DNA of 64,000 nucleotides, from assembly GCA_048270185.1 (NCBI GenBank), contig JBLWTJ010000002.1, forward strand, positions 224,001 to 288,000. The letters are read 5' to 3'. The notes under the pieces are model-generated. The model ran no database searches and was not told the origin of the DNA. It was given only the letters and a program-made list of their open reading frames with translations. A program made the translations under genes and the position numbers. The stretch comes from Bacteriovoracaceae bacterium. Its GTDB lineage: Bacteria > Bdellovibrionota > Bacteriovoracia > Bacteriovoracales > Bacteriovoracaceae. How positions within the stretch are numbered: position 1 is the first letter of the stretch; the number at the start of each line of letters is the position of its first letter. Of the stretch, positions 4,558 to 22,024 are shown piece after piece.

Positions 4558-4623
4558 AATTAGCTCCTTATATGAGTAAATTTTCGATGACATTAGTATC
4601 AAATAAAGTGAGATCTAAAGATA

Positions 4624-4659
4624 ATCTATTTTCTCTATTCTAGGATAGAGAATACCTAT
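4624..4659 (-). promoter_or_regulatory. OxyR-like (LysR) operator upstream of katG
   Basis: Perfect ATAG-N7-CTAT at 4645-4659 plus an adjacent imperfect half (ATCT-N7-CTAT, 4624-4638), resembling the OxyR ATAG-N7-CTAT repeats. Confidence 0.5.
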
Positions 4660-4711
4660 AGGAGCTAAAAGTTAATTTTTCTTATTTAACGCGAAAGGAC
4701 ATTCACTTGAT

Positions 4712-4876
4712 CTAAAGACTCTGCCAAAGCTCTTTTAGCCTATCAATACTGGCTTCTCCATCTTCTAAGAGCTCTTCTTTGGAAAAAGGAAGCTCGTCAT
4801 CACTAGAGAGAAAAACGATGATTTGTTTCAAACGCTCTGCTTCATTTATGAGGTCATGTCTTAATTTACTATCCAT
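4712..4876 (-). CDS. Small (54 aa) HisKA/DHp-like helical protein
   Basis: ATG at 4876, just after the bEBP stop at 4884; MDSKLRHDLINEAERLKQII resembles an H-box helix. The track's upstream extension overlaps the bEBP gene. Confidence 0.55.
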   Translation of the reverse strand: MDSKLRHDLINEAERLKQIIVFLSSDDELPFSKEELLEDGEASIDRLKELWQSL

Positions 4877-4883
4877 TTTTGAC

Positions 4884-6245: not shown

Positions 6246-6268
6246 AATGGTCCTCTTTAGACCATTAT
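6244..6268. promoter_or_regulatory. Perfect inverted repeat (GTC-N7-GAC core) over the RBS and start codon of the sigma54 regulator
   Basis: ATAATGGTC-CTCTTTA-GACCATTAT, 9-bp arms. Confidence 0.55.
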
Positions 6269-6330
6269 TATCTAATTAATACATAAAATTAAAGGCTTAT
6301 GTAAAAAGTATCGGTATTTTATTTAATAGA

Positions 6331-6347
6331 CAGTCGAAAAAAGACTG
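6331..6347. promoter_or_regulatory. Inverted repeat CAGTC-N7-GACTG (candidate operator or weak terminator)
   Basis: CAGTCGAAAAAAGACTG in the intergenic region upstream of the bEBP gene. Confidence 0.4.
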
Positions 6348-6367
6348 CTTAAATACCCTAAATTACA

Positions 6368-6742
6368 CTAAATACTGAGTTTTCTACACTTAAGCTTTAA
6401 GAGGGCCTTTTCAAATTCAATCTGAGTCGCAAAAATTTTAAAGTAGTCATGGCCAAAGGTATTGTGAAGGGCCTCTCTTATCGACTCATCTGAATTCGTT
6501 AATACTTTTTGAGTAATCATACCCTTTTTGAAGTCATCAAAGGTTGCATCCTGATTCTCAACTTCTTTTTGAATCTCTTCAAATAACTCTTGTACGCCTT
6601 TAGTATATTTTTTAGTTTTACAAGTATTTGTCTGTGTATCATTTCCTGTCGCGATGGTATCCGATGAGCCACTTGTGCTTGTTCCACCACCACATGATAT
6701 AAGAGTAGAAAATAAAATTATTATTGCTAAAATATTCCTCAT
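6368..6742 (-). CDS. Hypothetical lipoprotein
   Basis: Lipobox LISC, Gly/Ser/Thr linker, helical domain with two further Cys. Confidence 0.8.
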   Translation of the reverse strand: MRNILAIIILFSTLISCGGGTSTSGSSDTIATGNDTQTNTCKTKKYTKGVQELFEEIQKEVENQDATFDDFKKGMITQKVLTNSDESIREALHNTFGHDYFKIFATQIEFEKALLKLKCRKLSI

Positions 6743-6753
6743 AATTCCCTCAA

Positions 6754-7515
6754 TTATTCGAATTTAAAATTCTTTGTTATATTTCTATTCTCTTCCATTA
6801 TATATGTTTGAAACTCATCAAATCCAATATAGTCCATAAGAGTTGGTCGTGTTTCATCACCTATAATTTTAATCTCTTTATTGATATTAAGATATAGAGA
6901 TCGATCTTGATATGTATTTGTTAGATTGACTTCTTTTACTTTTGGAAAGAATTGTAAAAATCTAAAATCGGCAATATCAGTGTCAGAGAGGTCAAGGCTT
7001 CTCTTTCTTTTTATCTTTCGATAAACAGAGTAACATGAAGAGCGATCATAGCTTTTCCCTAGAGCAGCAAGAGCATGCTTTTCAAATTCATTGAGATTAG
7101 ACATTCTACAATAATCAAGAAAATTTGCTTCACGACATTTTAAGTTGGTTGTATCAACAGCTAGATTTTTAACAATAATAACTTGTCCTCGGCGTGTATA
7201 ATTTGCAGTCGATTCTTCAAAGAATGATTTTTCAAAATCTCTCTTTTCCCACTCCCCTGCAATATATGTATCATTGATGACAGTATTAACACTTCCGATA
7301 TCTGTATAAGTTTCGTAATCCTCAAGTTCAGCACTAATCTTGACTCCAGAGCAAACAAGCGCCTTAGCTGTTTTATTTTCTATTGTAAGAATGACCTTAT
7401 TATTTTCTTCTCCTGTTTTCAGGTTGAAGTTCACCCCATCCAAATCAGAAGCATTTGTATTTACGAATAAAATAAATAAAAGAATTGTTACTAAGTTTTT
7501 CATATTATCTCTCAC
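6754..7515 (-). CDS. Secreted hypothetical protein with a short LRR-like C-terminal region (likely start 7503)
   Basis: Signal MKNLVTILLFILFVNTNA; Cys cap followed by SLDLSDTDIADFRFLQFFPKVKEVNLTN (LRR-like). Confidence 0.7.
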   Translation of the reverse strand: MRDNMKNLVTILLFILFVNTNASDLDGVNFNLKTGEENNKVILTIENKTAKALVCSGVKISAELEDYETYTDIGSVNTVINDTYIAGEWEKRDFEKSFFEESTANYTRRGQVIIVKNLAVDTTNLKCREANFLDYCRMSNLNEFEKHALAALGKSYDRSSCYSVYRKIKRKRSLDLSDTDIADFRFLQFFPKVKEVNLTNTYQDRSLYLNINKEIKIIGDETRPTLMDYIGFDEFQTYIMEENRNITKNFKFE

Positions 7516-7924
7516 ACTTAATTGAATTTAACACCTTAAAAGGTTTGCTCATTATTGAGCGATACTCGATTTTTTCAAGAAGGTTATTTGAATCAAAGTT
7601 AATTACCAAACTATCAGTTTTCCTTAAACTCTGTTTTCCAGAAGTCTTCTTGAGAAGTAAATTTGTTACAACTTCATGATCAGCTTGACCAAGAGTCATA
7701 CTTAATCCAGCACTATTTCCTCTAATACGATCAACAATTGTCAACCATACACTATTATTAATATCACCAATATGATCAATATAAATGTCACAATTATAAA
7801 GTTTTATTCTTCCTCTATATTCTGACAAGAAGTGATCAAGGACCTGTTTGTTACCTGAAGAAAAGCTCCATTCACTAGCGTTAGTATTCATCATAACAAA
7901 CAGTAACAACAAAAAAGTTTTCAT
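7505..7924 (-). CDS. Secreted hypothetical protein
   Basis: Signal MKTFLLLLFVMMNTNA; start overlaps the upstream gene's stop (ATGA). Confidence 0.8.
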   Translation of the reverse strand: MKTFLLLLFVMMNTNASEWSFSSGNKQVLDHFLSEYRGRIKLYNCDIYIDHIGDINNSVWLTIVDRIRGNSAGLSMTLGQADHEVVTNLLLKKTSGKQSLRKTDSLVINFDSNNLLEKIEYRSIMSKPFKVLNSIKCER

Positions 7925-8565
7925 CGATCATCCCTTTCAAAAATTAATTCCAATTCTGGACGATAAACTTCAATCCCTAAATTAATCATCGAATTCCCAT
8001 GGCATAGGTCTAGGTCTTTTAAGTTCTTAATAGGACAGTTTGAAACAATTAATAATTCAAGTCTATCCTGCATACATAGTTGCCAGTTTGAAATCAGACT
8101 TAGAACTCTTCCTTCTTCAACAATTAGCGGTCTAACATTTTCTAGTGCAAGATTAATTTCATCACCAATTTTAAGGGCATAAAAGCTATTCTTATCAATT
8201 GATTCAACCGGAAGCTCAATCAGAATATTTTTTTCTAATACACCACGATATGAAAGTTCCACTTGCTCTTTCAAATAAAGACTCAAGTACTGGTCATAAG
8301 CGATTGAAAAATCATCTATCCCACCTAGATTATTTGCATATGTAAACTCTTTAACTTGTGAAACAATTCTCTTAGCTTGTTTTTGTCTATGAGATATTGC
8401 TTCGCAAGAAATAAACTTATCAGCAGATATAACATGACCAACATTATTGCTAATACTTCTTCTTGCATGCTTTAAGACATAGAGAAGGTTTTCATCAACA
8501 ATATTGGCCATACCAGATGTCATGCTAAATATAGTAAATAAAGAAATTACAATCGCTTTCAACAT
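7921..8565 (-). CDS. Secreted hypothetical protein
   Basis: Signal MLKAIVISLFTIFSMTSGMA; GAGG RBS; four Cys. Confidence 0.8.
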   Translation of the reverse strand: MLKAIVISLFTIFSMTSGMANIVDENLLYVLKHARRSISNNVGHVISADKFISCEAISHRQKQAKRIVSQVKEFTYANNLGGIDDFSIAYDQYLSLYLKEQVELSYRGVLEKNILIELPVESIDKNSFYALKIGDEINLALENVRPLIVEEGRVLSLISNWQLCMQDRLELLIVSNCPIKNLKDLDLCHGNSMINLGIEVYRPELELIFERDDR

Positions 8566-8570
8566 GACCT

Positions 8571-10151
8571 CTATTCTTCAATAACAAAAGTTGCAGTACC
8601 GTAATGAGAGTATGCTCTCGTCTCTTTTACTTCTTCAGTACTTTTATAATTAAACTTTCTTAGAAACTCACTTGTTTGTGTTGCACTTCCAAATAATGAA
8701 TTCGAAAGATCAAGCGCCATTGCAGCATACTTACAGTAAACAGATGGACAGTCTTTACTCTTAAGCATATCTGAGCCTACAGACGCCCCGTTTCTTCTTG
8801 CTTCAGGAAGAGTGATTGCAGGGTTAGAACGAACATATCCTGTAGAGATTTCTTCAATAGTCTTAGCAACAAAGTCATTCATTATTTTACTCTTTTCTTC
8901 TTTCGAAAAATTATCTCTTGGGTCTTCTGAGTAGAAATGTACTTCTAAATTACCAGCAATATTTGTCGTCTCTGATATTGAGTTAATTGACTTTGTCTTA
9001 AATAAGCCACCTTTTGTCGTATGCTTCTTTACTTTCTTATAAATCTCACTCTTGTTATAAATAAGTCTGTAGTTATTATTAACAGCAAGGTTATACTTAT
9101 ACATTGAGTTAACATTGAAAACAGCAGTTAAATCTTTGTTAGCTTTTTCACCTTTTAGTAGCATGCAAGATGATAGTGCTGAAATATTAACACTACCACT
9201 TAAAGACTCACCGAAAACAATACTTCTAAATCCTGGCGTAACCTCATTGTCTTGATCCATAATTCCTGGAATACTAATATCTTTTTCAATTTCAGAAACT
9301 AGACCACCGATATCGTTAACAGCAAACTGAATCGAGTTATCAACAGGCATTCTCTGAAGATTAATTCCTCTATTATAACGCTTGAATTCATTAAGAAGTT
9401 CATAATGTTTATTTTCAAGTATAACTTTTACTGTCCCACCATTACGTGATCTCATATCAGCGAGGTCAGCATTCATTTTTTTAAGTAATACTGAAATTAC
9501 ATCAAGAGTATTTGATTCACGTGTCGTTAGTTCTTCAACTTGCATTTTAGTTGCGACTAATTGCTCATTTAAGCTTGTTTCCGCTTCAAAGAGACCTTCA
9601 AGTTTTGCATTAACCTGTGCCATCGAACTTTCAATTTTCACAAGTGTATTTTCTAATTGCATTATATTGTAACGATTTAGATCCTCATTCTTTTTCAAAG
9701 CTACAATTTGAGTTTCAACTAGAACTTTCTTACCCTGAAGATCTATTTTCTTCTCTAGCAACTTAATACGAGACACAGTGTATTTCTGTAGACTTGTATT
9801 CGTACGAACAAGAGTTTGCATTAAAAGCTTTAATTGTCTTTTCTCATAAACAGAAAGCTCTGCACTATCTTGAATTTGATCAATCTCTTTACTGTATTGA
9901 TCTAACAATAAGTAAACACCTTCACACTCTGCTTCCGTTACGAGAGAATTGAATGCATCCACTCTCACAGTATTTGTTTTTGGGGGAAGAACATAGGCAG
10001 TCTTACAAGACTGATCCCAAAAATACCCCGTCGATCCTTTTGGTTCACGTATCTTTTGTGAATCACACTTCGTATACTTATTTGGAATATTGGCCAATAC
10101 TGGAGCAGATATTAAAAATGCTGCCACTGCCATCTTTTTACTAAAATTCAT
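8571..10151 (-). CDS. Secreted coiled-coil protein, paralog of 11187-12617
   Basis: Signal peptide; CKTAYVLPP motif; long heptad region; FGESLSGSVNISALSSC; GAGGTG RBS. Confidence 0.85.
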   Translation of the reverse strand: MNFSKKMAVAAFLISAPVLANIPNKYTKCDSQKIREPKGSTGYFWDQSCKTAYVLPPKTNTVRVDAFNSLVTEAECEGVYLLLDQYSKEIDQIQDSAELSVYEKRQLKLLMQTLVRTNTSLQKYTVSRIKLLEKKIDLQGKKVLVETQIVALKKNEDLNRYNIMQLENTLVKIESSMAQVNAKLEGLFEAETSLNEQLVATKMQVEELTTRESNTLDVISVLLKKMNADLADMRSRNGGTVKVILENKHYELLNEFKRYNRGINLQRMPVDNSIQFAVNDIGGLVSEIEKDISIPGIMDQDNEVTPGFRSIVFGESLSGSVNISALSSCMLLKGEKANKDLTAVFNVNSMYKYNLAVNNNYRLIYNKSEIYKKVKKHTTKGGLFKTKSINSISETTNIAGNLEVHFYSEDPRDNFSKEEKSKIMNDFVAKTIEEISTGYVRSNPAITLPEARRNGASVGSDMLKSKDCPSVYCKYAAMALDLSNSLFGSATQTSEFLRKFNYKSTEEVKETRAYSHYGTATFVIEE

Positions 10152-11187
10152 AACTCACCTCTCCTATTTCAACTTTATTTATAATTGTTTTAAATTTGAT
10201 TCCCATTCCAGGAGTAACTTTTTTATCTGAGTACTTTCTAACTACTGATTCGATAAAACTTGGAGTTAAATCATTGAATCCAAATTTTCCATTCTGCTCA
10301 AAAAAGCTCCTATAGAAATCGAGTCTTCCTTTCTCTCCAAAACGATTAAGTATATCTCCTTTGAATAGAGCTCTTTCGCCTTTCATCATTTCAGCAGTTT
10401 TAAAGCCTGCCTCAAACATATTTTTTGGAGATGTTAGTTCATTTAGTTTCTTAAGTTTATTTCCATAAGACTCAACATCTTCAGACTTAATCCAATCTGT
10501 AACAACTGTTTGACTAAAGTGCTTCCCGCTAACATTGAATGCTAACTCAACATCTTTTTCAGCAATGTCACAGGCTAATTCAAAAAGAGAAGTATCAAAT
10601 TGAACTTTTCCTATTTTTAAATCATCAGCAGTTCTTGCATAAAAGTAATCTTCATCAAATCTCTTAAGATATACATTTAAGTAACTCTCAGGAAATAATT
10701 TCAGAATCGCACTATTCTTCACTTCAACATCAAAGAAAGATTCATTAAAACTAACCTGATTATTAATCCTCGAAAGAACAGATTCCGGATTAACGTTTAC
10801 ACTTAAAGCAAGTCTCTTCAAGAACCCGACAGAAGCGAAGCGTTCTCCATATGGATAAATAACCACTTTATTCTTTCCTAGTTCATAAGAGTTTGTTTCT
10901 CCAGAAAGAGTAAAAGGTTCTAAAATCTCACGACGAATTTGTGCAAATTCTTTCGCATCCATTTTAGATACATCTCTAAATCTTAGCTCCTTCTTATAAA
11001 GACCTTTAATTTTTCGACATAACTTCTTTTCTAGTGTAATGCTATCAACTACAATTTTCGATTCATACTCATTAGCAAACTCTAGATTTAAATTATTATT
11101 ATGATCTTTTTTAAATTCATAACCATCGACACTGATCACATTGGCAATTGCCGCTAGGTTCAGAAGAGTTAATAAAAGTGCTCTCAT
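10141..11187 (-). CDS. Secreted hypothetical protein
   Basis: Short signal MRALLLTLLNLAAIA; overlaps both neighbouring genes. Confidence 0.82.
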   Translation of the reverse strand: MRALLLTLLNLAAIANVISVDGYEFKKDHNNNLNLEFANEYESKIVVDSITLEKKLCRKIKGLYKKELRFRDVSKMDAKEFAQIRREILEPFTLSGETNSYELGKNKVVIYPYGERFASVGFLKRLALSVNVNPESVLSRINNQVSFNESFFDVEVKNSAILKLFPESYLNVYLKRFDEDYFYARTADDLKIGKVQFDTSLFELACDIAEKDVELAFNVSGKHFSQTVVTDWIKSEDVESYGNKLKKLNELTSPKNMFEAGFKTAEMMKGERALFKGDILNRFGEKGRLDFYRSFFEQNGKFGFNDLTPSFIESVVRKYSDKKVTPGMGIKFKTIINKVEIGEVSYEF

Positions 11188-12617
11188 TATTTACTCTCCT
11201 TTACAAATCCCATCGTTGTAATTCTAAGAACAGTTTTAATAAGCTCTGATTTCTCATTATATGAGTAAGCAAAATTCTTCGCACTTGTTTGAATTAACTC
11301 CCCTCTACCTTCGACTGCAACTTTCACAGTATAGCTTTGGTCCCAACACTTACGACTTTTTCTAAAAAAACTTCTCTTTGTACGACAAATTCTCTGAGTT
11401 CTCGTTTGCTTAATATGTGGATCATTTGGAATATCAAGATCTTTAATAATAAGCTTACTATCTGTTGGTGTGGCAATTGTTGAGATTAGCTTTAAAACGA
11501 TATCATCTAGAATTAAGCCTTTTAAATCTTGAATCTCTTCGTATAGTTCACCCGACGTTCCTGCTGAATCTTCATCCTGGATCGTAATATCAATTGACTG
11601 ATCTAAATTTGAACTTTCAAAAAGATCAACAACTTCTGAAACCTTAAATGTATTCTTTGTTTTAGTTAGTTTATTTAATTCATTTATTACTTTATCGACT
11701 TTTACTTTTACCGAGTACTTCTTACTCAACTCTACTGGATACCATATTGTTGAGTTAGCAACCAAGTAAGTTGATAAATTTGAATTAAGCGCCTCTCTCT
11801 TAGCGCTATCTAATGTAAACGCTTCACCATTTTTCTTCTTTAGAATATTTACGATAGGACACACACCAGACATATTAAGTTGAATAAATCCTGTTAAACT
11901 CTCTCCCATTGCAAAAGTGTTCTCACTTTCAGCTGCAGCATAACCAATTCTTTCAGAAATATTTTCAAGACTTGAAAGCTTTACTCCTGGTACATTAAAA
12001 GAATGAAGAGCACCTGTACTACTAAGTCCAATTAAGTCATCTTCTGACTTTAGTCTCACACTTAGAGCATTTGCAACAAGAGGCATCTTCTTAATTGTAA
12101 GCCCTCGGCCAGTGTTTGCTTCACGGTATGCATTTACTAGTTCAGTCCACTCGTGTTCAAAGTGTGCCTTACCTTCAAAGATAACCATCTTAGAAAATTG
12201 ATCCTTCTCCATCTTTGCTTGAGGCAAGGCCTTATTTATATAAGTAAGAATATTCATTTCAGAATCAGTTAGAGTTGCAATACGAGATTCTAAATCACGT
12301 TGTGTTTCAACAAGATTCTTCACGCGATTAAGTGATGTCGTATAAGAAGAACATAAGTTACTTTCTGCAAGAATATTATATGAGTCAAAACGAGCAATCC
12401 CATTTCTTGGAGGTAAGACAAATACTGTCTTACATGACTTATCTGTTAAGTAATCAGAAGAGTGAGATGCCACTGCTCCACCTGCACCAGGTTTTACAAT
12501 TGCCAGATTACATTCTTCAGTATTTCCCTCATAAGGAAAGTTTGCAAAACCAAATTGCCCAATAACTAAAGAACTTAGAAGCAGGCCTTTCTTTAAAAAT
12601 TCATAATAAGTATTCAT
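11187..12617 (-). CDS. Secreted coiled-coil protein, paralog of 8571-10151
   Basis: Signal peptide; CKTVFVLPP; MGESLTGFIQLNMSGVCP; GGGAGA RBS. Confidence 0.85.
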   Translation of the reverse strand: MNTYYEFLKKGLLLSSLVIGQFGFANFPYEGNTEECNLAIVKPGAGGAVASHSSDYLTDKSCKTVFVLPPRNGIARFDSYNILAESNLCSSYTTSLNRVKNLVETQRDLESRIATLTDSEMNILTYINKALPQAKMEKDQFSKMVIFEGKAHFEHEWTELVNAYREANTGRGLTIKKMPLVANALSVRLKSEDDLIGLSSTGALHSFNVPGVKLSSLENISERIGYAAAESENTFAMGESLTGFIQLNMSGVCPIVNILKKKNGEAFTLDSAKREALNSNLSTYLVANSTIWYPVELSKKYSVKVKVDKVINELNKLTKTKNTFKVSEVVDLFESSNLDQSIDITIQDEDSAGTSGELYEEIQDLKGLILDDIVLKLISTIATPTDSKLIIKDLDIPNDPHIKQTRTQRICRTKRSFFRKSRKCWDQSYTVKVAVEGRGELIQTSAKNFAYSYNEKSELIKTVLRITTMGFVKESK

Positions 12618-12669
12618 ATTTATCTCCCTAGCAATTATTTGCTCTCATTTATTTAGTGACTTGTTAAAA

Positions 12670-12685
12670 GCAGGGAGTGTGCCAA
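12670..12685 (-). promoter_or_regulatory. sigma54 (-24/-12) promoter for the leftward operon
   Basis: Minus strand TTGGCACACTCCCTGC = GG-N10-GC, about 50 nt upstream of ATG 12617. Confidence 0.8.
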
Positions 12686-12735
12686 TTTTTTAATTAGTTA
12701 AATGATTGAAACTATGTAAGTTTGAATCTCAAGCC

Positions 12736-12784
12736 AGTCCTTTTCAGACCAAATAAGTCCAAAATAATCTAGTCGACCAAGACT
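12736..12784. promoter_or_regulatory. Candidate enhancer (UAS) region between divergent sigma54 promoters
   Basis: AGTC-N7-GACC (12736-12750), AGTC (12756-12759), AGTC-N6-GACT (12771-12784). Confidence 0.45.
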
Positions 12785-12820
12785 GATTATGTAATTTTAA
12801 TAGTTTAGAACATTTCTTTC

Positions 12821-12836
12821 TTGGCACTCAGATTGA
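12821..12836 (+). promoter_or_regulatory. sigma54 (-24/-12) promoter for the rightward operon
   Basis: TTGGCACTCAGATTGA = TGGCAC-N5-TTGA (GA variant at -12), about 40 nt upstream of ATG 12879. Confidence 0.7.
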
Positions 12837-12878
12837 ATAGATAAGCTTACTAATTATGATTAATTCGAGGAGAAAGAT

Positions 12879-13757
12879 ATGAAGACTAAATTTATGAGTA
12901 TATTATTGGCCACAAGTTGCCTCTTAGTACTAGGCCAAGTTCATGCTATAACTTTCACAAAAACTGAGGCTAGAAAAGTTTGTAAAGAGATAAGAGATAG
13001 CCAGATCAGTCAGACATCACAGTGTAATTCTGATGTAAATACTAACTACAATATCATTGAAGAACTTACTAAAAGCTACCTTCATGGCCTTGACCTTTTA
13101 GATGAACGACAAAAAGAGGCCCTCCAATACCTAGAGTATAACTCACAGGCCCAAGGTGAATATCTTGAATTATCAAAGTCGAAAATTGAACTAACGGATC
13201 AGTTAAAAGGCCTTGAGGAAAATATTCAATCAACTTTTGAGTACTATAACAAGTTGATTGAAGGTATTTCACCAAACTTCTCTAATCGCTATGCCACAGA
13301 ACTTCTACAACAATATTCAAAAGAGAAGAAAACAAGAGTAAGCCGCCTAGAGAGCGAAAGAGAATCTCTAAGTTCTCGCCTTACTTCAATTAGAGAAAGG
13401 CTTGCACAACTTAATATTGAACTTGCTCCATATCGTGAAATTATCAATCAATACAACTTACAGATAAGTGAAATAAAGTCACAAACTCAGCAAATTCTAA
13501 AAAGACTTGAAGAAAATAAACAAACAAATAGGAGTCATGATACGACAGGATTCATTGGAAGATCCCTATTTGACTTTGGCCATGGAGATGACTTTGATAT
13601 GCAAGCATGTATAAGTTTGCATATGTCTCTTAACAAGTTACCTGAGTTTGATTTACCACGTCTGCCTAATATACCAAGAGGCCCTTGGGGAACAGATGGA
13701 CCTGGCATCAATAACCCTTATGTGAAATCTTTACAAAAAGAATCATATTCTAGGTAG
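12879..13757 (+). CDS. Secreted long coiled-coil protein with Pro/Gly-rich tail
   Basis: Signal ending QVHA; heptad-rich core; tail LPRLPNIPRGPWGTDGPG; GAGGAG RBS. Confidence 0.85.
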   Translation: MKTKFMSILLATSCLLVLGQVHAITFTKTEARKVCKEIRDSQISQTSQCNSDVNTNYNIIEELTKSYLHGLDLLDERQKEALQYLEYNSQAQGEYLELSKSKIELTDQLKGLEENIQSTFEYYNKLIEGISPNFSNRYATELLQQYSKEKKTRVSRLESERESLSSRLTSIRERLAQLNIELAPYREIINQYNLQISEIKSQTQQILKRLEENKQTNRSHDTTGFIGRSLFDFGHGDDFDMQACISLHMSLNKLPEFDLPRLPNIPRGPWGTDGPGINNPYVKSLQKESYSR

Positions 13758-13836
13758 TTAGAGATGACGTGAGAAAAAAGAAATTCAAACGATTATTAAT
13801 TTATGATAACAATAATTAAAATTTAATGAGGGATAT

Positions 13837-14247
13837 ATGAAAGATAAAACAATTATCGGACTAGCAATTCTAACAGCAACTTTTGGAGCTCATGCGCAAG
13901 ATGCTGATACACAGAATAAAGATGATAAGTCTAAAGACTTAAAACAAATCTATACCCAACAAGAAGACTTAACAGTTGATGAAGAAGTCGAAATTAAAAT
14001 TCTCGAGCACCTTGAAGAGCAAGGTATCTTAATTGAAGACCTTACAATCCAAGAGATTGAAGAACTTCAGATCCTAATGAAGAAAATTGTACTTAGAGAT
14101 CGCTTGCTAATAAATTCAAGTATTCGTTGTATGATAAGCCCAGATGCTGCAAGCACTAATATTAGATGTCTTAGTGCAGAAAGAAAACTCGAAGAGAAAT
14201 TAAAAGAGCAGCTAAATCAAATCAATCAAAGCTTTAACCGCCGCTAA
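13837..14247 (+). CDS. Secreted small protein, candidate YcaO substrate/precursor
   Basis: Signal ending GAHA, acidic helical region, then NSSIRCMISPDAASTNIRCLSA; lies 9 nt upstream of the YcaO gene. Confidence 0.6.
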   Translation: MKDKTIIGLAILTATFGAHAQDADTQNKDDKSKDLKQIYTQQEDLTVDEEVEIKILEHLEEQGILIEDLTIQEIEELQILMKKIVLRDRLLINSSIRCMISPDAASTNIRCLSAERKLEEKLKEQLNQINQSFNRR

Positions 14248-14256
14248 TTAGTATTA

Positions 14257-15426
14257 ATGAAAATATTAAATCAAAGAGAGTCTCTTGATGGCCTTGTCGA
14301 CAGATTTGCAATCCAAGGCCAGGCTCTTTCTGATGATACAATTCTCAATATAAAAGAATTCCTAAATAACAATACCGATAGACTTACAATTGAAAGAGTT
14401 ATTTCGGATTTAATACCTCACGACTACTATCTGACACGAACATCATGTTACTATCATGGTACACAAATAAATGGTTTTTCACTCTCACATAAAGAAGAGC
14501 CTCACAAATCACTGCTTGAAGCCTATGAGAGGTACTTATTTTTAAACTTAGCTCTACTTGCAGATATTAATAATGAATCAAACAATGCATCTTCATACCT
14601 AAAATTGCTTAATGTTGAATCGATGGATCTCTCAAAGACGAATGTCATCAATTTAAACTCGCTAGAGGAAGTTAGTCTTGAACGCTATTTACTTGGTCTT
14701 CAATCAAATTTCTCATCCTTTACTTCAAATGGATGTGCAGTACATACATCAGTACTAAACTCAACCAAGGCATCGATCTTCGAATTATTAGAAAACCATA
14801 TCATTCAAGAGCATATCATGCTTGATATAGCACCAGTTGAAGTCCATGTAGACGAGCTTATCCCCACTTCAATTTCAGCGAAACTTAATGAGCATGGATT
14901 TGAGATAAAGACCCTTTGCTTTACAAATGGCCAATGGCCTACTTTTTTAACGTTCATTCTTAATAAAGACTTAACAGGTCCCTATCTATTCTACGGCATT
15001 GGCTGCCATGAAGATTTAGATCAAGGTTTACAAAAATCAATTAGAGAAGCTTTCATGTGTTGGTGTATCGAGCTTCCTCAGATTAGCGCATTAGATGAAG
15101 TCGACTTAGGACACGATATCTCTAAGTCATCAAAATTCTATCATTATCAAAATAGTGAAGTCATGCAAAAGGCATGGTTTGGTATGCCTATTAAAAGTAT
15201 TGAAGAGATTAAACTTCAATACCCAACCCAAAAGTTAGCGGCCGTTATTAAAGAAATGGACTTTTTAATTCTGCCAATTCTGGCCCAAGGAGAAAAAGGA
15301 CAAACCATTGTTTTTACAAAGGTTTTTTCTTGTAAAAATCACCCAAAATCCTACTCAACTCCCCCCTATCTACGAATTCATGATACATTAAATAATATTG
15401 ATAAATTAAAAAATTACCCTTTCTAA
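14257..15426 (+). CDS. YcaO-family protein (divergent)
   Basis: KSLLEAYERY; TSNGCAVH...SIFELLENH; YGIGCHEDLDQGLQKSIREA; C-terminus ...YPF. Confidence 0.8.
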   Translation: MKILNQRESLDGLVDRFAIQGQALSDDTILNIKEFLNNNTDRLTIERVISDLIPHDYYLTRTSCYYHGTQINGFSLSHKEEPHKSLLEAYERYLFLNLALLADINNESNNASSYLKLLNVESMDLSKTNVINLNSLEEVSLERYLLGLQSNFSSFTSNGCAVHTSVLNSTKASIFELLENHIIQEHIMLDIAPVEVHVDELIPTSISAKLNEHGFEIKTLCFTNGQWPTFLTFILNKDLTGPYLFYGIGCHEDLDQGLQKSIREAFMCWCIELPQISALDEVDLGHDISKSSKFYHYQNSEVMQKAWFGMPIKSIEEIKLQYPTQKLAAVIKEMDFLILPILAQGEKGQTIVFTKVFSCKNHPKSYSTPPYLRIHDTLNNIDKLKNYPF

Positions 15427-16272
15427 GTGAGAGATATGAAAGTTGGAAGTATATTAAAGTATAGCAACACAGAGCTATCCTTAGTTGAAAAATTACCTTC
15501 TGGTTTAAATAAGCTAGTATGGTCTAAGGACACTCAGCTACTGATCTTTGACCAAGAAGACAATTATCTTCTACTGAATCCAAGAGAAGTTTCTGGTATG
15601 AGACTTTTTATTGAAGGTCAAAAAACGACACTAATTAAACTATTAAAAGACCAAACTCTTTGCTATCTCATTCAAGGTATTGCTAAAAGCTTCCAATGTC
15701 GATTTATACAAATCCAATCAGAGCAGCTTGATTTAAAAGATCACCTTGATAATGGCTTCTACTTTTCAAATATTATATTAAAAAAAGATTTATCTAAACC
15801 AATCGAAGAAATCAGTTCATCACTAATTGAGAGAAAACTCGATAAAAAATATCAAAATGAGTATGCTTTAAATGAATTTATGACGAGAGTGTCAATTCCA
15901 GGTGGAACACATTACAAGGATGATTTCTACACACTGATTAAGGCAGAGTATAAGGAACTAATCGAACTCGATATCGATGGACTAGACTTTATTGAGTATT
16001 CTTTAAAGGAATATGGCCATGATACATATTATATATGGATGATTAACCACCATACCAAAACTGCTCTACGATGTTTTTCATGGGTGGCACCAAAACTTAG
16101 AGGACAAAGTATATCGAGTCGTGCAAATGAAGAAATCAATAAGAGCTTATATGCTAAAGGCGTTAAGCAATGTCTATCATTTACATCTTTCACAAATATA
16201 GCACAGGTAAGAAGTAGTTTAAAAGCTGGCTACAAGTTAGACCGAATTGTTATTTTAAAAGAGGTTAACTAA
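15427..16272 (+). CDS. Protein with C-terminal GNAT acetyltransferase-like domain
   Basis: Motif A WVAPKLRGQSIS and motif B NIAQVRSSLKAGY. Confidence 0.65.
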   Translation: MRDMKVGSILKYSNTELSLVEKLPSGLNKLVWSKDTQLLIFDQEDNYLLLNPREVSGMRLFIEGQKTTLIKLLKDQTLCYLIQGIAKSFQCRFIQIQSEQLDLKDHLDNGFYFSNIILKKDLSKPIEEISSSLIERKLDKKYQNEYALNEFMTRVSIPGGTHYKDDFYTLIKAEYKELIELDIDGLDFIEYSLKEYGHDTYYIWMINHHTKTALRCFSWVAPKLRGQSISSRANEEINKSLYAKGVKQCLSFTSFTNIAQVRSSLKAGYKLDRIVILKEVN

Positions 16273-17660
16273 TGAGTCGTTTAATTCTATCAACTTTACT
16301 CATTCTTATTTCAATTAATACTCTTTCTAAAGATATCTACTTAAAAAGTGATATTAAAATTACCGGATTTGACCCAGCAACCCTAAAGTATGCAGAGGAA
16401 TGGGAGTTATCCCCAACTGTATATGAGACACTAATTAAACCAATTGCCTCAGAAGGTTTCCTTAGGCCTTCTCTTGCTGAAAGTTGGAAATACAAGAGCG
16501 GAACACTAAAGTTCAACCTTAGAAAAGAAACAAGATTTTCTAACGGTGACCCAATCAATGCCAAGGCAGTTAAAGAGTCATTCCTACGTTACTTACTACT
16601 TGATAAGAACAAGGAATCTATTCTTTACAATTGTTTAAAAGAGGCAAAGAATATTAAATCAATCACTGAATCTCATCCTTCTATTACGATTCAATCGGAA
16701 TATAATATTTCTTTTAAAATTAAAGAAGACTGTAAGGATACTTTTCTAAAAGAGATCGCTCAACCGATATACGGTATTGTCTACACAAAGAACTTAAAAA
16801 AGGACCTTTCATTAACTACTCCTTCGATTGTATCAGGAGCTTTTAACTATAAATTAAATAACGATGATCTTATCCTGTATCGTAACAGCAATAACTGGGC
16901 ATGGTTTGAGAATAAATCCAAATTACAAAAGATTATTGTCTCAAAGAATAGAAGTAAGAATACGAATGTTTTAAGAACAGGCTCTATTGAAGTATTCAAT
17001 GAACTGCAAGAGTCAAATCAAGATTTCATTCTTAGTCTTCCAAATATCACTTGGTATCTAACATACGAATGTAAGAACGATTGTGACCTAAAGAAATCAA
17101 TAATAGATGAACTAAAATATAATCTACCAAAAATCATTAAAGAAAAGAGCTATTCAAATGTTTTCAATACACCAGCAGATTCTTTCTTTCCAGCAAGTTT
17201 TAACTGCCCATCAAAAGAGGTTAAAAAGGTTGCTATAAAGAAAAAGGGAATATGTCTTAAACTTGACTACGGATCGAGAAGAACAAATGAAGCTGTCATG
17301 GGATTCACTGATAAAGCATTAAATGATCTCGGTTATAAAACTAATAACTGTGAGAATCCAAAGGTTTTCAAAATATACCCACAATTTCTCCATGATGAGA
17401 TTATACCAACATTAGATTTCTTGGCCAATACAGTCATGTCAATCAACAATATTGTAGAGATCAACAAGTATCTTCCAAATCAAAACAATAAAGTTACCTA
17501 CAATCGAGGAAGGCTATGCACAGAGTTCAGTAAGTTAAACTTTACTCCACTCTATCACTCACGCATTGCTTTTTTCTATTCAGATAAACCACTAAAGAAA
17601 ATATTCTTTAAAAGCGGTGGATATATTAGTTTAATTGATCTGCCATTTGTTGAGTTTTAA
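16272..17660 (+). CDS. Family-5 (oligopeptide/nickel type) ABC substrate-binding protein, no adjacent permease
   Basis: Signal peptide; FDPA...VYETL...PSLAESW...FNLRKETRFSNGDPINAKAVKES. Confidence 0.82.
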   Translation: MSRLILSTLLILISINTLSKDIYLKSDIKITGFDPATLKYAEEWELSPTVYETLIKPIASEGFLRPSLAESWKYKSGTLKFNLRKETRFSNGDPINAKAVKESFLRYLLLDKNKESILYNCLKEAKNIKSITESHPSITIQSEYNISFKIKEDCKDTFLKEIAQPIYGIVYTKNLKKDLSLTTPSIVSGAFNYKLNNDDLILYRNSNNWAWFENKSKLQKIIVSKNRSKNTNVLRTGSIEVFNELQESNQDFILSLPNITWYLTYECKNDCDLKKSIIDELKYNLPKIIKEKSYSNVFNTPADSFFPASFNCPSKEVKKVAIKKKGICLKLDYGSRRTNEAVMGFTDKALNDLGYKTNNCENPKVFKIYPQFLHDEIIPTLDFLANTVMSINNIVEINKYLPNQNNKVTYNRGRLCTEFSKLNFTPLYHSRIAFFYSDKPLKKIFFKSGGYISLIDLPFVEF

Positions 17661-17661
17661 T

Positions 17662-18684
17662 ATGAAGATTACCGAGAATGATTATTTTTTAGCAAAGAAG
17701 TATAAGAAGCAAGATAGCTTCTATATAAGCCTATCTCGTAAACGCCCTACTTTAGCTGGTGCATTTATTGAAATGCTAGAAGTTCTTTCACAGAACTTAA
17801 TTAATAAAGAGTGTGATTTTCTACTAATCGACAACGACGATCAGATTCTTTTAAAGGATTTACAAAATATTGGATTCAACACTTATGGTTACTTAGCAGA
17901 TGATAAATTAATCTCACTAAGTGACATTAACCTTATTGCACATACAAAAAAGATACAGAATATTGTTCTAGTTGTCGGAAGTAAGATTAAGCATCCTTCA
18001 ATTGAGAACTCAAAAGAGTTTATTTCATTTATTAGAAACAGAGAGCGTTATTTAACAAATCTTACAGAATTAAATCCAAATATTTATAAGGATACAGAGA
18101 ATTTAAAATCTTTTAACCTACAAGATAATGATAAATTAAGAGTTGATAATAGCTTCTCATCTCTATCAATGAAAAGAACCTCGGCAAATGGATTTAACTC
18201 GCCACTAGAAAGTAGTGAAATCATCCAGCTTCTTAACGACAGTCTTTCATATACTCAAAGTAATTCCATAAAAAGACCAATTGCTTGTGCAGGAGGACTT
18301 GGAAATTTCAAGGCCTATATAACAAATGGTGATAATAATGTCGAAATCTACACTCCAGAAGACTTAAACATCAAGCAAACGAATATCGAATGGAATAATC
18401 TTTTAATGGACCAGATAGCAAGTAATCTTGAGACCTTTAATGGATGTAAAACTTGGCTAATTCTAAGTGTGGACCTAGTTCAATTAAGGAGTAAATATGG
18501 AGCAAGAGCTTATCGATTTGCTCTAATGGAAACAGGCGGACTTCTCCATCAACTACATCTATCGGCTACTTCATATGGATTTGACTTTCGTATTCTAGGC
18601 GGTTTTGACGACAAGGTAGTAGAAACTTTACTACACATAGGTAATGAAGAAGTTGTCACAGCAATATGTGGACTAGGAAAGTAA
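17662..18684 (+). CDS. SagB/McbC-type FMN-dependent dehydrogenase (nitroreductase fold)
   Basis: KRTS...KRPIACAGGL...KYGARAYRFALMETGGLLHQLHLSA...LGGFDD; ATG 17662 directly after the SBP stop. Confidence 0.82.
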   Translation: MKITENDYFLAKKYKKQDSFYISLSRKRPTLAGAFIEMLEVLSQNLINKECDFLLIDNDDQILLKDLQNIGFNTYGYLADDKLISLSDINLIAHTKKIQNIVLVVGSKIKHPSIENSKEFISFIRNRERYLTNLTELNPNIYKDTENLKSFNLQDNDKLRVDNSFSSLSMKRTSANGFNSPLESSEIIQLLNDSLSYTQSNSIKRPIACAGGLGNFKAYITNGDNNVEIYTPEDLNIKQTNIEWNNLLMDQIASNLETFNGCKTWLILSVDLVQLRSKYGARAYRFALMETGGLLHQLHLSATSYGFDFRILGGFDDKVVETLLHIGNEEVVTAICGLGK

Positions 18685-18690
18685 CAACTA

Positions 18691-20799
18691 ATGAAAAGAA
18701 TTGATAAGATCTTCATCATTCTCTTTTGCTTTATTATCGTAGTGTTAGGATTCTACTCAAATTATGCCTATAGCTTAATTCAAGAAGAAGCAAAGCAAGT
18801 TGCCATCAAACAAATGATTGCTAATTCTAATGTTATAACTTCATCTATCCAAAATGATGTATTTTCAAGTAACTATATTAACGCCTGGTACTCAGCATCA
18901 CGTTCAATCAAAAACATAGATGGTGCTTACTTCATTCTAGCGGATATCGACGGTAACGACCTAGTCGATGATTTAGGCTCTCAACTCAAGTATAAGAAGC
19001 TTACAGAAAATAATAAATTTAAAAAAAAGGAAATTAACAAGTCTTCTTATTATTTAGTTTCAAATGACTTTAAAAACCTCATTGTAAAAGATCACTTTAT
19101 TAGTAACCTCGACGGGAAAAGTAATTATTCTATTTCATATGTCTATCCGCTCTCTTTCTTAGAAGCGAGTATATCAAAAATCTCATATATAAATTTAGCT
19201 TTAGCTGCAATATTAATTGGAATCATTGCTCTGTATTTTATAATTATTCGTAAGCTCTTTAATAATAGCTTCACTGCTCTTGGTAATGGAGTTGACCATA
19301 TTATTAAGGGGGAAGAAATCACTAATGCTGAAATCAACGAAGTACTTGAAGATCATTTCGAGGCGCGCACACTCCTTGATAATTTCAAGAAAGATTATGA
19401 TTTAACTAAGAGGAAGTTACAGGAAGAAGCAAAACTATCGGCCCTTTCTAAAATTGCAACACAAGTTGCCCATGATATTCGTTCCCCTCTATCTGTATTA
19501 GAAATGTCTATTTTTGAAGAGGAACAAGTTAGTAATAAGAATATAATCCAAAGTGCGATTCAAAGAATTAATGATATTGCCAATAATTTATTAAGTGAGA
19601 ACAGGACTAATACTAAAGGTCAGGAAGAGATCTATCTTCCATATGTTATTGATTCGATTATTACCGAAAAACGCTACCAATATTCAAAATATCATCAACT
19701 AGAAATTAGATTTGTTAACAATTGTGACAATCTTAACCTGTTTACAAGGTTTAACGATATCGAGCTAAAGCGAATTCTTTCAAACCTTATTAATAACTCG
19801 GTCGAGAGCTTCGCAAACAGACAAGGTATTATTGAAATTATCCTCACTGACTCTCAGAATGATATCTTCTTAGAGATTAAGGACAATGGTCACGGTATTG
19901 AAGAAGACATCCTAGATCAACTACGCAAGAATCCATTTAGTCACAAGAAAGAAGGTGGAAATGGAATAGGCCTTTCTCATGCGATGCAAACAGCTCAGAA
20001 GTATCAAGCCAGTTTAGCACTAGACTCGCAAGTAGGACATGGAACAACAATTCGCCTAACACTTAAGAGAACTTCAGCACCAAGGTGGTTTAGCTCTTCA
20101 ATTAACCTTTCCAAATTTGATAATATAATTGTCTTAGATGACGACTACTCGATTCATGAGCTTTGGAATAAACGTTTATCAGGCCTTAAGAGAGATTATC
20201 ATATTATCAATTTAAATGACCCATTAGAGCTATCAGCAACTCTTTCTAAACTTGATATTAGTAAGACTTTCATTATATGTGATTACGAATTTGTACATGA
20301 GTCGCTAGACGGTATTGATACCATTATTGAAAATGATATCTCTAAGAACTCTATTCTTATTACAAGTCACTTCAATGAAGACGACCTTCAAGAAAGATGT
20401 CTTAAGAACTCAATAAAGATGGCACCTAAAAATTTAGCGAGATTAATTGAGCTACATGAATTTGGTAATATGAGTAAGGGAAAACAGGTCGTCTATCTTG
20501 ATGATGATCGCCTTTTAACTCATGCCTGGAAAACGAAAGCAACTAAGAATGGTGTGGATTTACTCACTTTCAATAATGTGAATGACCTACTTCAATCAGC
20601 AAGTGAGATCGATCAACAGGCGACCTTCTATATTGACTATAGTCTAGGTGAGAATGAATTAAGTGGAGATAAAGTAATTGAGAAGTTACAATCTCTAGGC
20701 TTTACTAAATTTTATTTGGCATCTGGTTACACTAGGGACTACTTTGACGAACTTGGAATTAATATCGAAGTCGTAGGTAAAGAAGCCCCTTGGGTATAA
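18691..20799 (+). CDS. Membrane hybrid sensor histidine kinase with two C-terminal receiver-like domains
   Basis: Two TM segments; QVAHDIRSPL; NLINNS, DNGHG, GNGIGL boxes; IIVLDDD and VVYLDDD receiver starts. Confidence 0.92.
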   Translation: MKRIDKIFIILFCFIIVVLGFYSNYAYSLIQEEAKQVAIKQMIANSNVITSSIQNDVFSSNYINAWYSASRSIKNIDGAYFILADIDGNDLVDDLGSQLKYKKLTENNKFKKKEINKSSYYLVSNDFKNLIVKDHFISNLDGKSNYSISYVYPLSFLEASISKISYINLALAAILIGIIALYFIIIRKLFNNSFTALGNGVDHIIKGEEITNAEINEVLEDHFEARTLLDNFKKDYDLTKRKLQEEAKLSALSKIATQVAHDIRSPLSVLEMSIFEEEQVSNKNIIQSAIQRINDIANNLLSENRTNTKGQEEIYLPYVIDSIITEKRYQYSKYHQLEIRFVNNCDNLNLFTRFNDIELKRILSNLINNSVESFANRQGIIEIILTDSQNDIFLEIKDNGHGIEEDILDQLRKNPFSHKKEGGNGIGLSHAMQTAQKYQASLALDSQVGHGTTIRLTLKRTSAPRWFSSSINLSKFDNIIVLDDDYSIHELWNKRLSGLKRDYHIINLNDPLELSATLSKLDISKTFIICDYEFVHESLDGIDTIIENDISKNSILITSHFNEDDLQERCLKNSIKMAPKNLARLIELHEFGNMSKGKQVVYLDDDRLLTHAWKTKATKNGVDLLTFNNVNDLLQSASEIDQQATFYIDYSLGENELSGDKVIEKLQSLGFTKFYLASGYTRDYFDELGINIEVVGKEAPWV

Positions 20800-20801
20800 A
20801 T

Positions 20802-21317
20802 TTACTTCTTAATTAAACTCTTTAATTTATCAGCAACTTTATTTGCATCAAGCATTGGATCAACATCGCGATCTAGTGCTGCAATTTTTAAATTTGGATC
20901 AATGATAAAAGTCCATCTCTTAGAAACGTTAAAGACTGCCATCTTCGCTCCAAACTCTTTTGTTACCTTTCCATCTTCATCTGATAAAAGATCAAAAGTT
21001 AAGGCATGCTCTTTGTGGAACTCGGCCTGATCTTTTACTGAGTCAGTACTAATCCCGTACACTTCTGCACCAAGGTTTCGAATAACTTTAATACTATCGC
21101 GAAATGCACAAGCTTGTTTTGTACATCCAGGAGTTCCGGCTTTTGGATAAAAATAAAGTACTGTCCACTTCCCTTTGCGTGTTTCTATATTAAAATCTAC
21201 ACCTTTGTGATTCTTAACGATAAATCTAGGAACTTCTTGTCCTGTTTCAACATCTTTTGCATATGCATTTACGAGTAAGAGACTCATTGCAACAAAAAAC
21301 CATTTTACCACTTTCAT
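20802..21317 (-). CDS. bcp: Bcp-type peroxiredoxin with signal peptide
   Basis: YFYPKAGTPGCTKQACAFRD; N-terminal signal ending NAYA. Confidence 0.88.
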   Translation of the reverse strand: MKVVKWFFVAMSLLLVNAYAKDVETGQEVPRFIVKNHKGVDFNIETRKGKWTVLYFYPKAGTPGCTKQACAFRDSIKVIRNLGAEVYGISTDSVKDQAEFHKEHALTFDLLSDEDGKVTKEFGAKMAVFNVSKRWTFIIDPNLKIAALDRDVDPMLDANKVADKLKSLIKK

Positions 21318-21495
21318 TATTCCTCCAAATCAGTGAAATTTAATCAATCTTATCTCTAGTTCTTATATATACGCAAATATCATCTCATCGGATCATTCTA
21401 AAAATTAAGAATAATGAATTTACATTTAGTTAGGAGCTTCAACTAACTCAACGACTTAAGTTCTCTTAATAAGATGAAACTGCTATAATCAGAAT

Positions 21496-21978
21496 ATGGA
21501 AGAAAGACAAATTAGCTTTAACTCAAAATTTGGAACGATTTATATCTGTGCCAATGTTAATGGAATCTCATACCTAGGATGGGAGGACCAAAATCGACCA
21601 GCTCCAACCCCTAGTTGTGATCTTAGAGTTAAGTCCTATCTTGCTAGTGCTCAAGATGAACTCATTGAATACTTTGCCGGTAGTCGCAAAGAATTCTCTC
21701 TTCCAATCAGTCTTGAGCGCGGAACAGATTTCCAAAAGAAGGTCTGGGCAGAATTATTAAAAATCCCATATGGCCAAGTTTCAAACTACAGTGATATTGC
21801 TCAGAAAGTAGGTTCACCAAAAGCCGTTCAGGCCGTAGGAAGCGCTAATGGGAAGAATCCAATCTGTCTGATTGTTCCTTGTCACCGCGTCATTGCAAAG
21901 TCGGGAGAACTTTCAGGATACGTTGCTGGGGCCAATATCAAAGAGGCCCTTCTCAATCTCGAAGGTGCTCTTATTTAG
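21496..21978 (+). CDS. ogt: Methylated-DNA-protein-cysteine methyltransferase
   Basis: GTDFQKKVW...IPYG...AVGSANGKNP...VPCHRV. Confidence 0.93.
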   Translation: MEERQISFNSKFGTIYICANVNGISYLGWEDQNRPAPTPSCDLRVKSYLASAQDELIEYFAGSRKEFSLPISLERGTDFQKKVWAELLKIPYGQVSNYSDIAQKVGSPKAVQAVGSANGKNPICLIVPCHRVIAKSGELSGYVAGANIKEALLNLEGALI

Positions 21979-22024
21979 TTGCTTTGTATAGACGAAAACG
22001 CAGGGCAATGCTAAATTATTACCC

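Follow-up and report, generated by a model that had tools for sequence, protein, structure and literature searches.

The YcaO operon and its setting

We analysed a window of 64,000 nucleotides from a Bacteriovoracaceae bacterium (assembly GCA_048270185.1, contig JBLWTJ010000002.1, positions 224,001 to 288,000 of the forward strand), and within it an operon that combines a compact YcaO enzyme with a flavin mononucleotide (FMN) dehydrogenase, a small candidate precursor carrying a signal peptide, a solute-binding protein (SBP) and a histidine kinase. The genome belongs to a marine predator, Halobacteriovorax, comprises 3.35 Mb and is 95.9% complete; all positions below are those of the window. 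An earlier interpretation made from the letters alone, here called the sequence-only reading, had listed five open reading frames (ORFs) between 13837 and 18684, and these were recovered as given, with 136, 389, 281, 462 and 349 amino acids (aa), the last counted from a TTG codon. The extent of the cluster had been drawn too narrowly, as the operon runs on into a hybrid kinase and lies within an island that also holds a sigma-54 regulator. Seven tightly packed genes on the plus strand, from 12879 to 20799, form the operon, and those of 13837-18684 abut or overlap one another:

12879 to 13757, plus strand: operon gene 1, a secreted coiled-coil protein of 292 aa with a signal-type N-terminus; Pfam matches at chance level only
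13837 to 14247, plus strand: candidate precursor of 136 aa, with a signal peptide and two IRC motifs
14257 to 15426, plus strand: compact stand-alone YcaO of 389 aa, ending in NYPF (PF02624, structural model, alignments)
15427 to 16272, plus strand: probable tandem GNAT-fold protein of 281 aa with a GTG start (look-alikes and profiles; no match to a hidden Markov model, HMM)
16272 to 17660, plus strand: family-5 SBP of 462 aa with a signal peptide or signal anchor (PF00496, E 8.3e-19)
17662 to 18684, plus strand: SagB/McbC-type FMN dehydrogenase of 340 aa with an N-terminal extension of about 190 aa (PF00881, McbC alignment)
18691 to 20799, plus strand: hybrid histidine kinase of 702 aa, with two transmembrane segments around an outer domain of about 130 aa, HisKA/HATPase domains and a weak receiver-like C-terminus

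The dehydrogenase ORF (17635-18684) yields 349 aa from the TTG or 340 aa from an ATG at 17662, 2 nt past the SBP stop codon, and the ATG is probably its start. Hydrophobic N-termini are absent from the YcaO, the GNAT-like protein, the dehydrogenase and the regulator, and present in the 136-aa protein, the SBP and seven proteins encoded on the minus strand. We predict that the YcaO, the GNAT-like protein and the dehydrogenase are cytoplasmic, and that the candidate substrate and the SBP are exported.

The operon belongs to an island of 16.2 kb (4685-20843) between katG (2359-4602) and a peroxiredoxin gene (20802-21317). It was delimited in this way because the two flanking genes lie only 155 and 191 bp apart in two close relatives, both named Halobacteriovorax assemblies whose MetRS is 95% identical to that of the window genome, and because nothing from 4685 to 20843 has a matching sequence in either of them. 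Judged by this comparison of sequences, the island is horizontally acquired. All of its proteins are single-copy in their own genome, except for generic regulator paralogues, and a search for flanking repeats at the island ends found none.

The candidate modifying enzymes

The YcaO scores 39 bits with PF02624 (cut-off 25.7 bits, E 7.9e-10). NCBIfam models of thiazole/oxazole-modified microcin (TOMM) enzymes gave only partial matches below their cut-offs, among them TIGR03604 for SagD-type cyclodehydratases with 43.7 of the required 219.25 bits. Residues E88, E91, R92, G159, E176, E179 and E264 are invariant in alignments of 10 and of 37 relatives, and the ExxER and ExxE motifs of YcaO enzymes supply the acidic and arginine residues of the ATP-Mg site. 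The sequence-only reading had let its proposal hinge on whether this protein models as a YcaO fold, which it does: the model built from the 37-sequence alignment (pLDDT 85.1, pTM 0.87) aligns to YcaO cores only, all 41 Foldseek matches at E<=1e-3 are YcaO structures, and McbD of the microcin B17 synthetase is the best structural match. By family profile, MJ1094 is nearest (E 3.6e-31), ahead of MusD and McbD (4.6e-18). From its sequence features the YcaO looks functional.

The enzyme is very isolated in sequence. A word-indexed search of 5.8 billion proteins returned only the query itself, and a full HMMER search of 1.84 billion representatives gave 13 proteins at E<=1e-3, four of which, including the query, reached E<=1e-30; the closest relatives share 36-40% identity. 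The query was not found in 9 other genomes of the genus. The window genome encodes a second YcaO (locus L001, C1:1004841-1005836) of the long E. coli type, with a frame of 731 aa and 228.7 bits to PF02624, which is presumably a housekeeping enzyme unrelated to the island.

The assignment of the SagB-type protein held as well, with PF00881 above its cut-off (E 1.1e-10), TIGR03605 below it (52.8 of 78.4 bits) and 3eo7 (3e-11) and McbC (7e-4) as relatives in the PDB. K278-Y279 in SKYGARAYRFALMETG aligns with the KY of McbC's FKYRYRGYRMALMETG and is invariant across three aligned homologues; azoline dehydrogenases are characterised by such a catalytic Lys-Tyr pair. For the N-terminal 195 residues, look-alikes proposed by a language model scored 0.79 at most, with a ThcOx-type cluster at 0.75 as a lead only. 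In word-indexed searches, neither the dehydrogenase nor the GNAT-like protein retrieved a homologue beyond the proteins of the window itself.

The GNAT fold proposed for the 281-aa protein has a more mixed record. Neither Pfam nor NCBIfam has a match, even at E<=10, yet language-model look-alikes (score 0.96, the ten best family-bearing matches all GNAT), Foldseek and profiles agree on the fold. The single-sequence model is poor (pLDDT 45.5) and its top Foldseek matches are still GNATs, at best with E 2.7e-3. A sole homologue was found, in a genome of another Bdellovibrionota family (G447; 26% identity, E 3e-26 to 5e-25), which itself matches Acetyltransf_1 below threshold (16.6 versus 20.7 bits). 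The profile of these two sequences has four PDB matches, all GNAT (E 0.03-0.28), and comparison by hhalign with GNATs from related loci gave 59% probability (E 9e-5), though only 10.6% for the single sequence against the GNAT alignment from those loci. Its N-terminal half, where a RiPP recognition element (RRE; RiPP, a peptide made by the ribosome and modified after translation) had been considered, looks by eye like a second, degenerate GNAT half. We therefore regard it, on these comparisons, as probably a tandem GNAT-fold protein of uncertain activity. Acylation, which the sequence-only reading had added to the pathway, finds no backing in the acetyl-CoA loop: this element, Q/R-x-x-G-x-G/A in GNATs, is degenerate here and not conserved in the sole homologue. 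A search of 237 further genomes of the order did not find the protein, and the two-sequence profile matched 2 of 401 genomes sampled from the phylum, its own and G447.

Related cassettes in Bdellovibrionota

With the window YcaO as query, compact YcaOs were matched weakly in 9 genomes out of a sample of 200 others from the order. A mini-YcaO profile built from these found relatives in 44 of the order's 237 other genomes (E<=1e-10). We examined 28 related loci. An SBP_bac_5 protein is encoded beside the YcaO at 16 of them, and a family-less protein of 495 aa takes its place at two more; a histidine kinase lies within three genes of the YcaO at 18. Flanking regulators are of the sigma-54 type at five loci and of the OmpR type at three, and a radical SAM context was found at two. 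No ABC permease or ATPase occurred among the 146 neighbouring proteins scanned. The SBP, which had been taken for an outsider interleaved with the modifying genes, is instead a conserved partner that comes with a histidine kinase and no transporter genes. We define loci with this combination as a class, the mini-YcaO/SBP/kinase cassette of Bdellovibrionota, and the window operon has all four of its marks, namely a small signal-peptide ORF, a family-5 SBP without transporter, a compact YcaO and a kinase.

The closest counterpart is that of G447 (locus L095), which has six genes in an order identical to that of the window, five of them full-length homologues. Besides the GNAT-like protein these are the YcaO (22% identity, 3e-11), the SBP (28%, 9e-42), the dehydrogenase (29%, 5e-44) and the kinase (29%, 4e-108); the first gene is a 101-aa signal-peptide ORF with a Cys tail, and the flanks carry RhuM, Xre/RES and IS200-type genes. 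In G155 (L083), a small ORF, an SBP, the YcaO, a nitroreductase and a hybrid kinase occur together and a GNAT is missing.

Other forms depart further from this plan. At L079-L081 (G109, G181 and G208, of the family to which the window genome belongs), a YcaO of about 400 aa is accompanied by two or three B12-radical-SAM genes and by genes for an AMP-binding enzyme, a GNAT and an alpha/beta hydrolase. At L089-L091 (G193, G020 and G087), an OmpR-type regulator, a GNAT and a YcaO occur with no SBP; L090 and L091 include a histidine kinase, and L089 ends at a contig edge. Two modules, L014 (6995-8446) and L017 (9691-11157, minus strand), have two SBP genes each, of which the copy adjacent to the YcaO lacks a signal peptide, so that the YcaO of these modules may have a cytoplasmic protein of the SBP fold as its partner.

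The candidate substrate

The 136-aa protein consists of a canonical signal peptide ending in AHA, with QD after the cleavage site, an acidic helical stretch and two IRC motifs 13 residues apart. These motifs hold its only two Cys, and 26 residues follow the last one. Its position and layout are equivalent to those of small signal-peptide ORFs in related cassettes: in 17 of 18 modules read by eye, such an ORF of 53-210 aa, with a Sec- or lipoprotein-type signal peptide, lies directly beside the SBP or the YcaO. In 13 of the 17 the last 20 residues include a Cys, commonly in a C-x2-C arrangement, with tails such as GCSRC, GCGKCN, SCSGCIKC, TCRCAR and PTCL. A strict automatic filter for a signal-like start and a Cys in the last 12 residues, applied as a rough control to 1525 small frames in 325 kb, let 29 through, nine of which lie directly at a module; it misses some cases called by eye. 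An acidic helical segment of the form LE..G(I/V)L..DL recurs in several of the longer small ORFs, that of the window included, although the alignment is weak. In L084 (10106-10528) and L085 (10116-10538), whose small ORFs lack Cys, a conserved secreted protein of 140 aa is encoded divergently upstream and ends in ...PSCQIK or ...PDCRIK; it is a possible alternative substrate.

The sequence-only reading had proposed a Sec-exported substrate that is modified without an E1 or RRE partner. This idea gains partial support from the small signal-peptide ORFs of 17 of the 18 modules and from the precedent of bufferins; nothing points to the 292-aa protein (12879), which had been named as a further substrate. 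Two reports describe bufferin and oxazolin precursors that bear Sec signal peptides, a feature termed 'highly unusual' among bacterial RiPPs, and state that the Cys-derived heterocycles of bufferins bind copper (PMC12452194; PMC11626156).

Alternatively, the target of the YcaO might be a different protein, for instance the SBP, the kinase or some housekeeping protein, modified by backbone thioamidation or otherwise, so that the small ORF would be an accessory periplasmic protein. The nearest family profile is that of MJ1094, which thioamidates a protein; in many modules the YcaO and SBP genes touch or overlap, and some modules have no ORF with a Cys tail. Stand-alone YcaOs that modify folded proteins have been published, an example being E. 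coli YcaO with uL16 as its target (PMC13063428). We nevertheless consider this explanation improbable. A SagB/McbC-type dehydrogenase with its KY pair would be sensible only after azoline formation, the SBPs are exported whereas the YcaO is cytoplasmic, and no neighbour is as constant as the small signal-peptide ORF. TfuA was not found in the genome (95.9% complete), which counts in the same direction, although some thioamide YcaOs work without TfuA.

Absent partners and known systems

As the sequence-only reading had noticed, partners of a canonical azole pathway are missing: no ThiF/E1, peptidase or ABC family was found among the 15 island ORFs of at least 110 aa (Pfam, E<=0.01). The two ThiF-family matches in the genome both lie on other contigs. 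Since no family could be assigned to nine of the island's proteins, there may be a novel protease or exporter among them.

In consequence the cassette differs in several respects from microcin B17 McbBCD and other TOMM or linear azol(in)e-containing peptide (LAP) systems. It has a SagB/McbC-type FMN dehydrogenase as they do, but no McbB/E1-like scaffold, leader protease, ABC exporter or immunity gene; its candidate substrate has a Sec signal peptide in place of a leader and offers few residues for modification, and the whole is hard-wired to an SBP and a kinase. This comparison bears on a second alternative, a classical antibacterial TOMM/LAP directed against prey or competitors, in which the two-component system would do no more than regulate production, with the SBP acting in immunity or re-uptake. 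The structural match to McbD and the resemblance of the dehydrogenase to McbC fit such a product, and the goadsporin LAP pathway includes a GNAT. However, the scans detected neither an E1/RRE partner nor a leader protease, exporter or immunity family, only 2 of the 136 residues of the candidate are Cys in place of a core rich in Cys, Ser and Thr, and the SBP and the kinase are conserved partners at 16-18 of the 28 loci without a transporter. We thus hold an antibacterial product to be very improbable.

With bufferins and oxazolins the cassette shares the export logic only, that is, a precursor with a Sec signal. Its enzyme is a YcaO, which may or may not be joined by a SagB-type dehydrogenase, and not an MNIO (DUF692) with a DUF2063 partner, neither family being present among the island ORFs; it also comes with an SBP, a kinase and a sigma-54 regulator. 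MJ1094 of M. jannaschii and the YcaOs of Methanopyrus kandleri (M. kandleri) and E. coli resemble that of the window in their size of about 385 aa and in having no fused or adjacent E1/RRE partner. Those compact stand-alone YcaOs thioamidate folded housekeeping proteins, whereas the dehydrogenase and the dedicated small secreted ORF of the window point to azoles made on a substrate that the cassette itself encodes.

Proposed sensing and regulation

The remaining genes and sites of the island lie to the left of the YcaO operon and, apart from one promoter, on the opposite strand:

4884 to 6245, minus strand: sigma-54 response regulator of the NtrC type (REC, AAA+ and lid; PF00158 E 7.3e-54, PF00072 E 3.5e-13)
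6368 to 12617, minus strand: operon of seven family-less genes (124, 253, 139, 214, 526, 348 and 476 aa), without Pfam or NCBIfam matches and with hydrophobic signal-type N-termini throughout
12669 to 12684, minus strand: sigma-54-type promoter TGGCAC-N5-CTGCT facing the minus-strand operon (pattern match)
12822 to 12837, plus strand: sigma-54-type promoter TGGCAC-N5-TTGAA, 41 nt upstream of the plus-strand operon (pattern match)

Both promoter sites are located in the divergent intergenic region of 261 bp, each facing its own operon. The pattern TGGCACNNNNNYTGMW (TGGCAC-N5-YTGMW) has only these 2 matches in 64 kb, where 0.13 would be expected, and one of 100 shuffles reached two matches. RpoN is encoded elsewhere in the genome. 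The kinase is homologous to those of related cassettes (G447, 4e-108; G155, 2e-68), and the regulator is homologous to cassette-adjacent regulators in L014, L015, L017, L018 and L086 (E 1.6e-32 to 7.9e-47).

The seven-gene minus-strand operon is a candidate regulon. Its secreted proteins of 526 aa (8571-10151) and 476 aa (11187-12617) are weak paralogues of each other (23-27% identity, E ~1e-7), without a family or a further copy in the genome. Two of its small secreted proteins (7505-7924 and 6368-6742, minus strand) have a Cys near the C-terminus and end in ...IKCER and ...KCRKLSI; they could be further substrates, or the resemblance could be chance. In the 124-aa protein of this operon, a lipoprotein, the lipobox Cys is followed by a Gly/Ser/Thr-rich stretch.

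No transporter genes lie near the SBP. Its best relatives in NCBIfam and the PDB are the nickel and metallophore binders NikA and CntA, the best in the PDB being NikA (E 1.7e-8, N-terminal lobe only). This affinity raises a third alternative, periplasmic metal handling in the manner of bufferins, in which an exported thiazol(in)e protein would chelate Cu or Ni and the SBP and kinase would report the metal-peptide complex or metal status and not cell density. The copper-binding heterocycles of bufferins mentioned above provide a model for it, many related small ORFs end in tails of the CxxC type, and the position of the island between katG and a peroxiredoxin gene lends it a little weak support. 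Yet the likeness to NikA, besides being confined to one lobe, amounts to 50.7 bits with the NikA-type NCBIfam model, far under the cut-off of 600; family scans of the island ORFs found no metal efflux, uptake or chaperone family, and the two Cys of the window's protein are 13 residues apart and do not form a CxxC. Metal handling thus appears distinctly unlikely to us.

Sensing by way of a binding protein has well-known parallels. In LuxP-LuxQ, CBP-ChiS and TorT-TorS, a sensor kinase depends on an SBP, and nisin NisRK and staphylococcal agr are autoinduced circuits of modified peptides. The window resembles the former in that a binding protein without its own transporter adjoins a (hybrid) kinase, and the latter in that a modified gene-encoded peptide would stand in one unit with its presumed sensor. 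We know of no circuit that combines a YcaO-modified, Sec-exported peptide with a family-5 SBP and a sigma-54 activator, and neither such a circuit nor a YcaO/SBP/kinase cassette was found described in the full-text literature searched.

Other features of the island

Scans of 4000-22000 gave no Rfam family at E<=0.1, and sigma-70-like sites are no more frequent than in shuffles. A search for small ORFs in the four intergenic gaps of the island found no Cys-rich peptide and only an acidic helical ORF of 66 aa without a family (4712-4912, minus strand), which lies at the left edge of the island and overlaps the 3' end of the sigma-54 regulator gene. DNA nearly identical to 12600-18700 (0.95-0.96 of sampled words) is present in three metagenome runs of seawater or plastic from three studies, one of which may be the source sample.

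Proposed function

Taken together, we favour, at a rough probability of 0.45, that the YcaO and the dehydrogenase make a thiazol(in)e on a small Sec-exported protein which the SBP, the kinase and the sigma-54 regulator sense. In the cytoplasm, the stand-alone YcaO would use ATP to cyclodehydrate Cys of the nascent or unfolded 136-aa protein, probably in both IRC motifs, to thiazoline, which the FMN dehydrogenase would oxidise to thiazole. The GNAT-like protein would either acylate the substrate or be a non-catalytic partner. Sec would then export the modified protein with cleavage of the signal peptide, and in the periplasm or outside the cell the SBP would bind the product and dock on the kinase, which would signal through the sigma-54 regulator to both divergent promoters. 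As far as gene content, adjacency and promoter motifs indicate, these promoters would drive the cassette itself and the seven-gene operon of secreted proteins. Because the hybrid kinase and the sigma-54 regulator belong to the unit, the likely role of the modified protein is to be made and sensed rather than to be a secreted product.

Several points weigh against this proposal. With regard to the enzymes, the YcaO would have to recognise its substrate without an E1/RRE partner and in competition with Sec targeting, the YcaO profile is closer to the thioamide-forming MJ1094 than to McbD, and the acetyl-CoA loop of the GNAT-like protein is degenerate. The 136-aa protein is atypical, as its Cys lie 27 and 41 residues from the C-terminus and not in a tail; BLAST found no similarity between this ORF and the small ORFs of G447 and G155, and in an alignment of seven small ORFs the initial Met is the sole invariant column. 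The small ORFs of 4 of the 18 modules (L018, L084, L085 and L088) have no near-terminal Cys, and none was found in one further module, L082. On the side of regulation, the -12 element of the plus-strand promoter reads TTGAA and so departs from the GC of the sigma-54 consensus. At related cassettes the pattern is not found consistently: it occurs at 5 of 95 loci and lies directly upstream of the module in L091 only, where it precedes the GNAT gene; L095 has no match without mismatch. Finally, signalling from the SBP to the kinase is proposed from adjacency alone.

A wider version of the same proposal, which we consider rather unlikely, is a new kind of peptide signalling among predatory Bdellovibrionota, with YcaO-made thiazol(in)e rings as the mark of the autoinducer and an orphan family-5 SBP that would read it outside the cell and pass the signal through the kinase to a sigma-54 activator, thereby turning on the cassette and a group of secreted proteins. 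Within this version the window would be the most elaborate form, in which the dehydrogenase and the tandem GNAT-fold partner may replace the missing E1/RRE scaffold.

What the window adds to the class is the rare six-gene form with a dehydrogenase and a GNAT-like protein, a clean island insertion and paired sigma-54 promoters, all in a small system of six genes and a regulator. If the proposed function is true, YcaO chemistry would extend to Sec-exported substrates, so far shown only for the MNIO enzymes of bufferins, and a pair of azole-forming YcaO and dehydrogenase would work without any E1/RRE partner. Modification of the RiPP type would moreover be tied to sensing by an SBP, a kinase and sigma-54 in Gram-negatives, where signalling by modified peptides is barely known. 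In a predator, a system of this kind that controls a private set of secreted proteins could bear on how attack is coordinated and timed.

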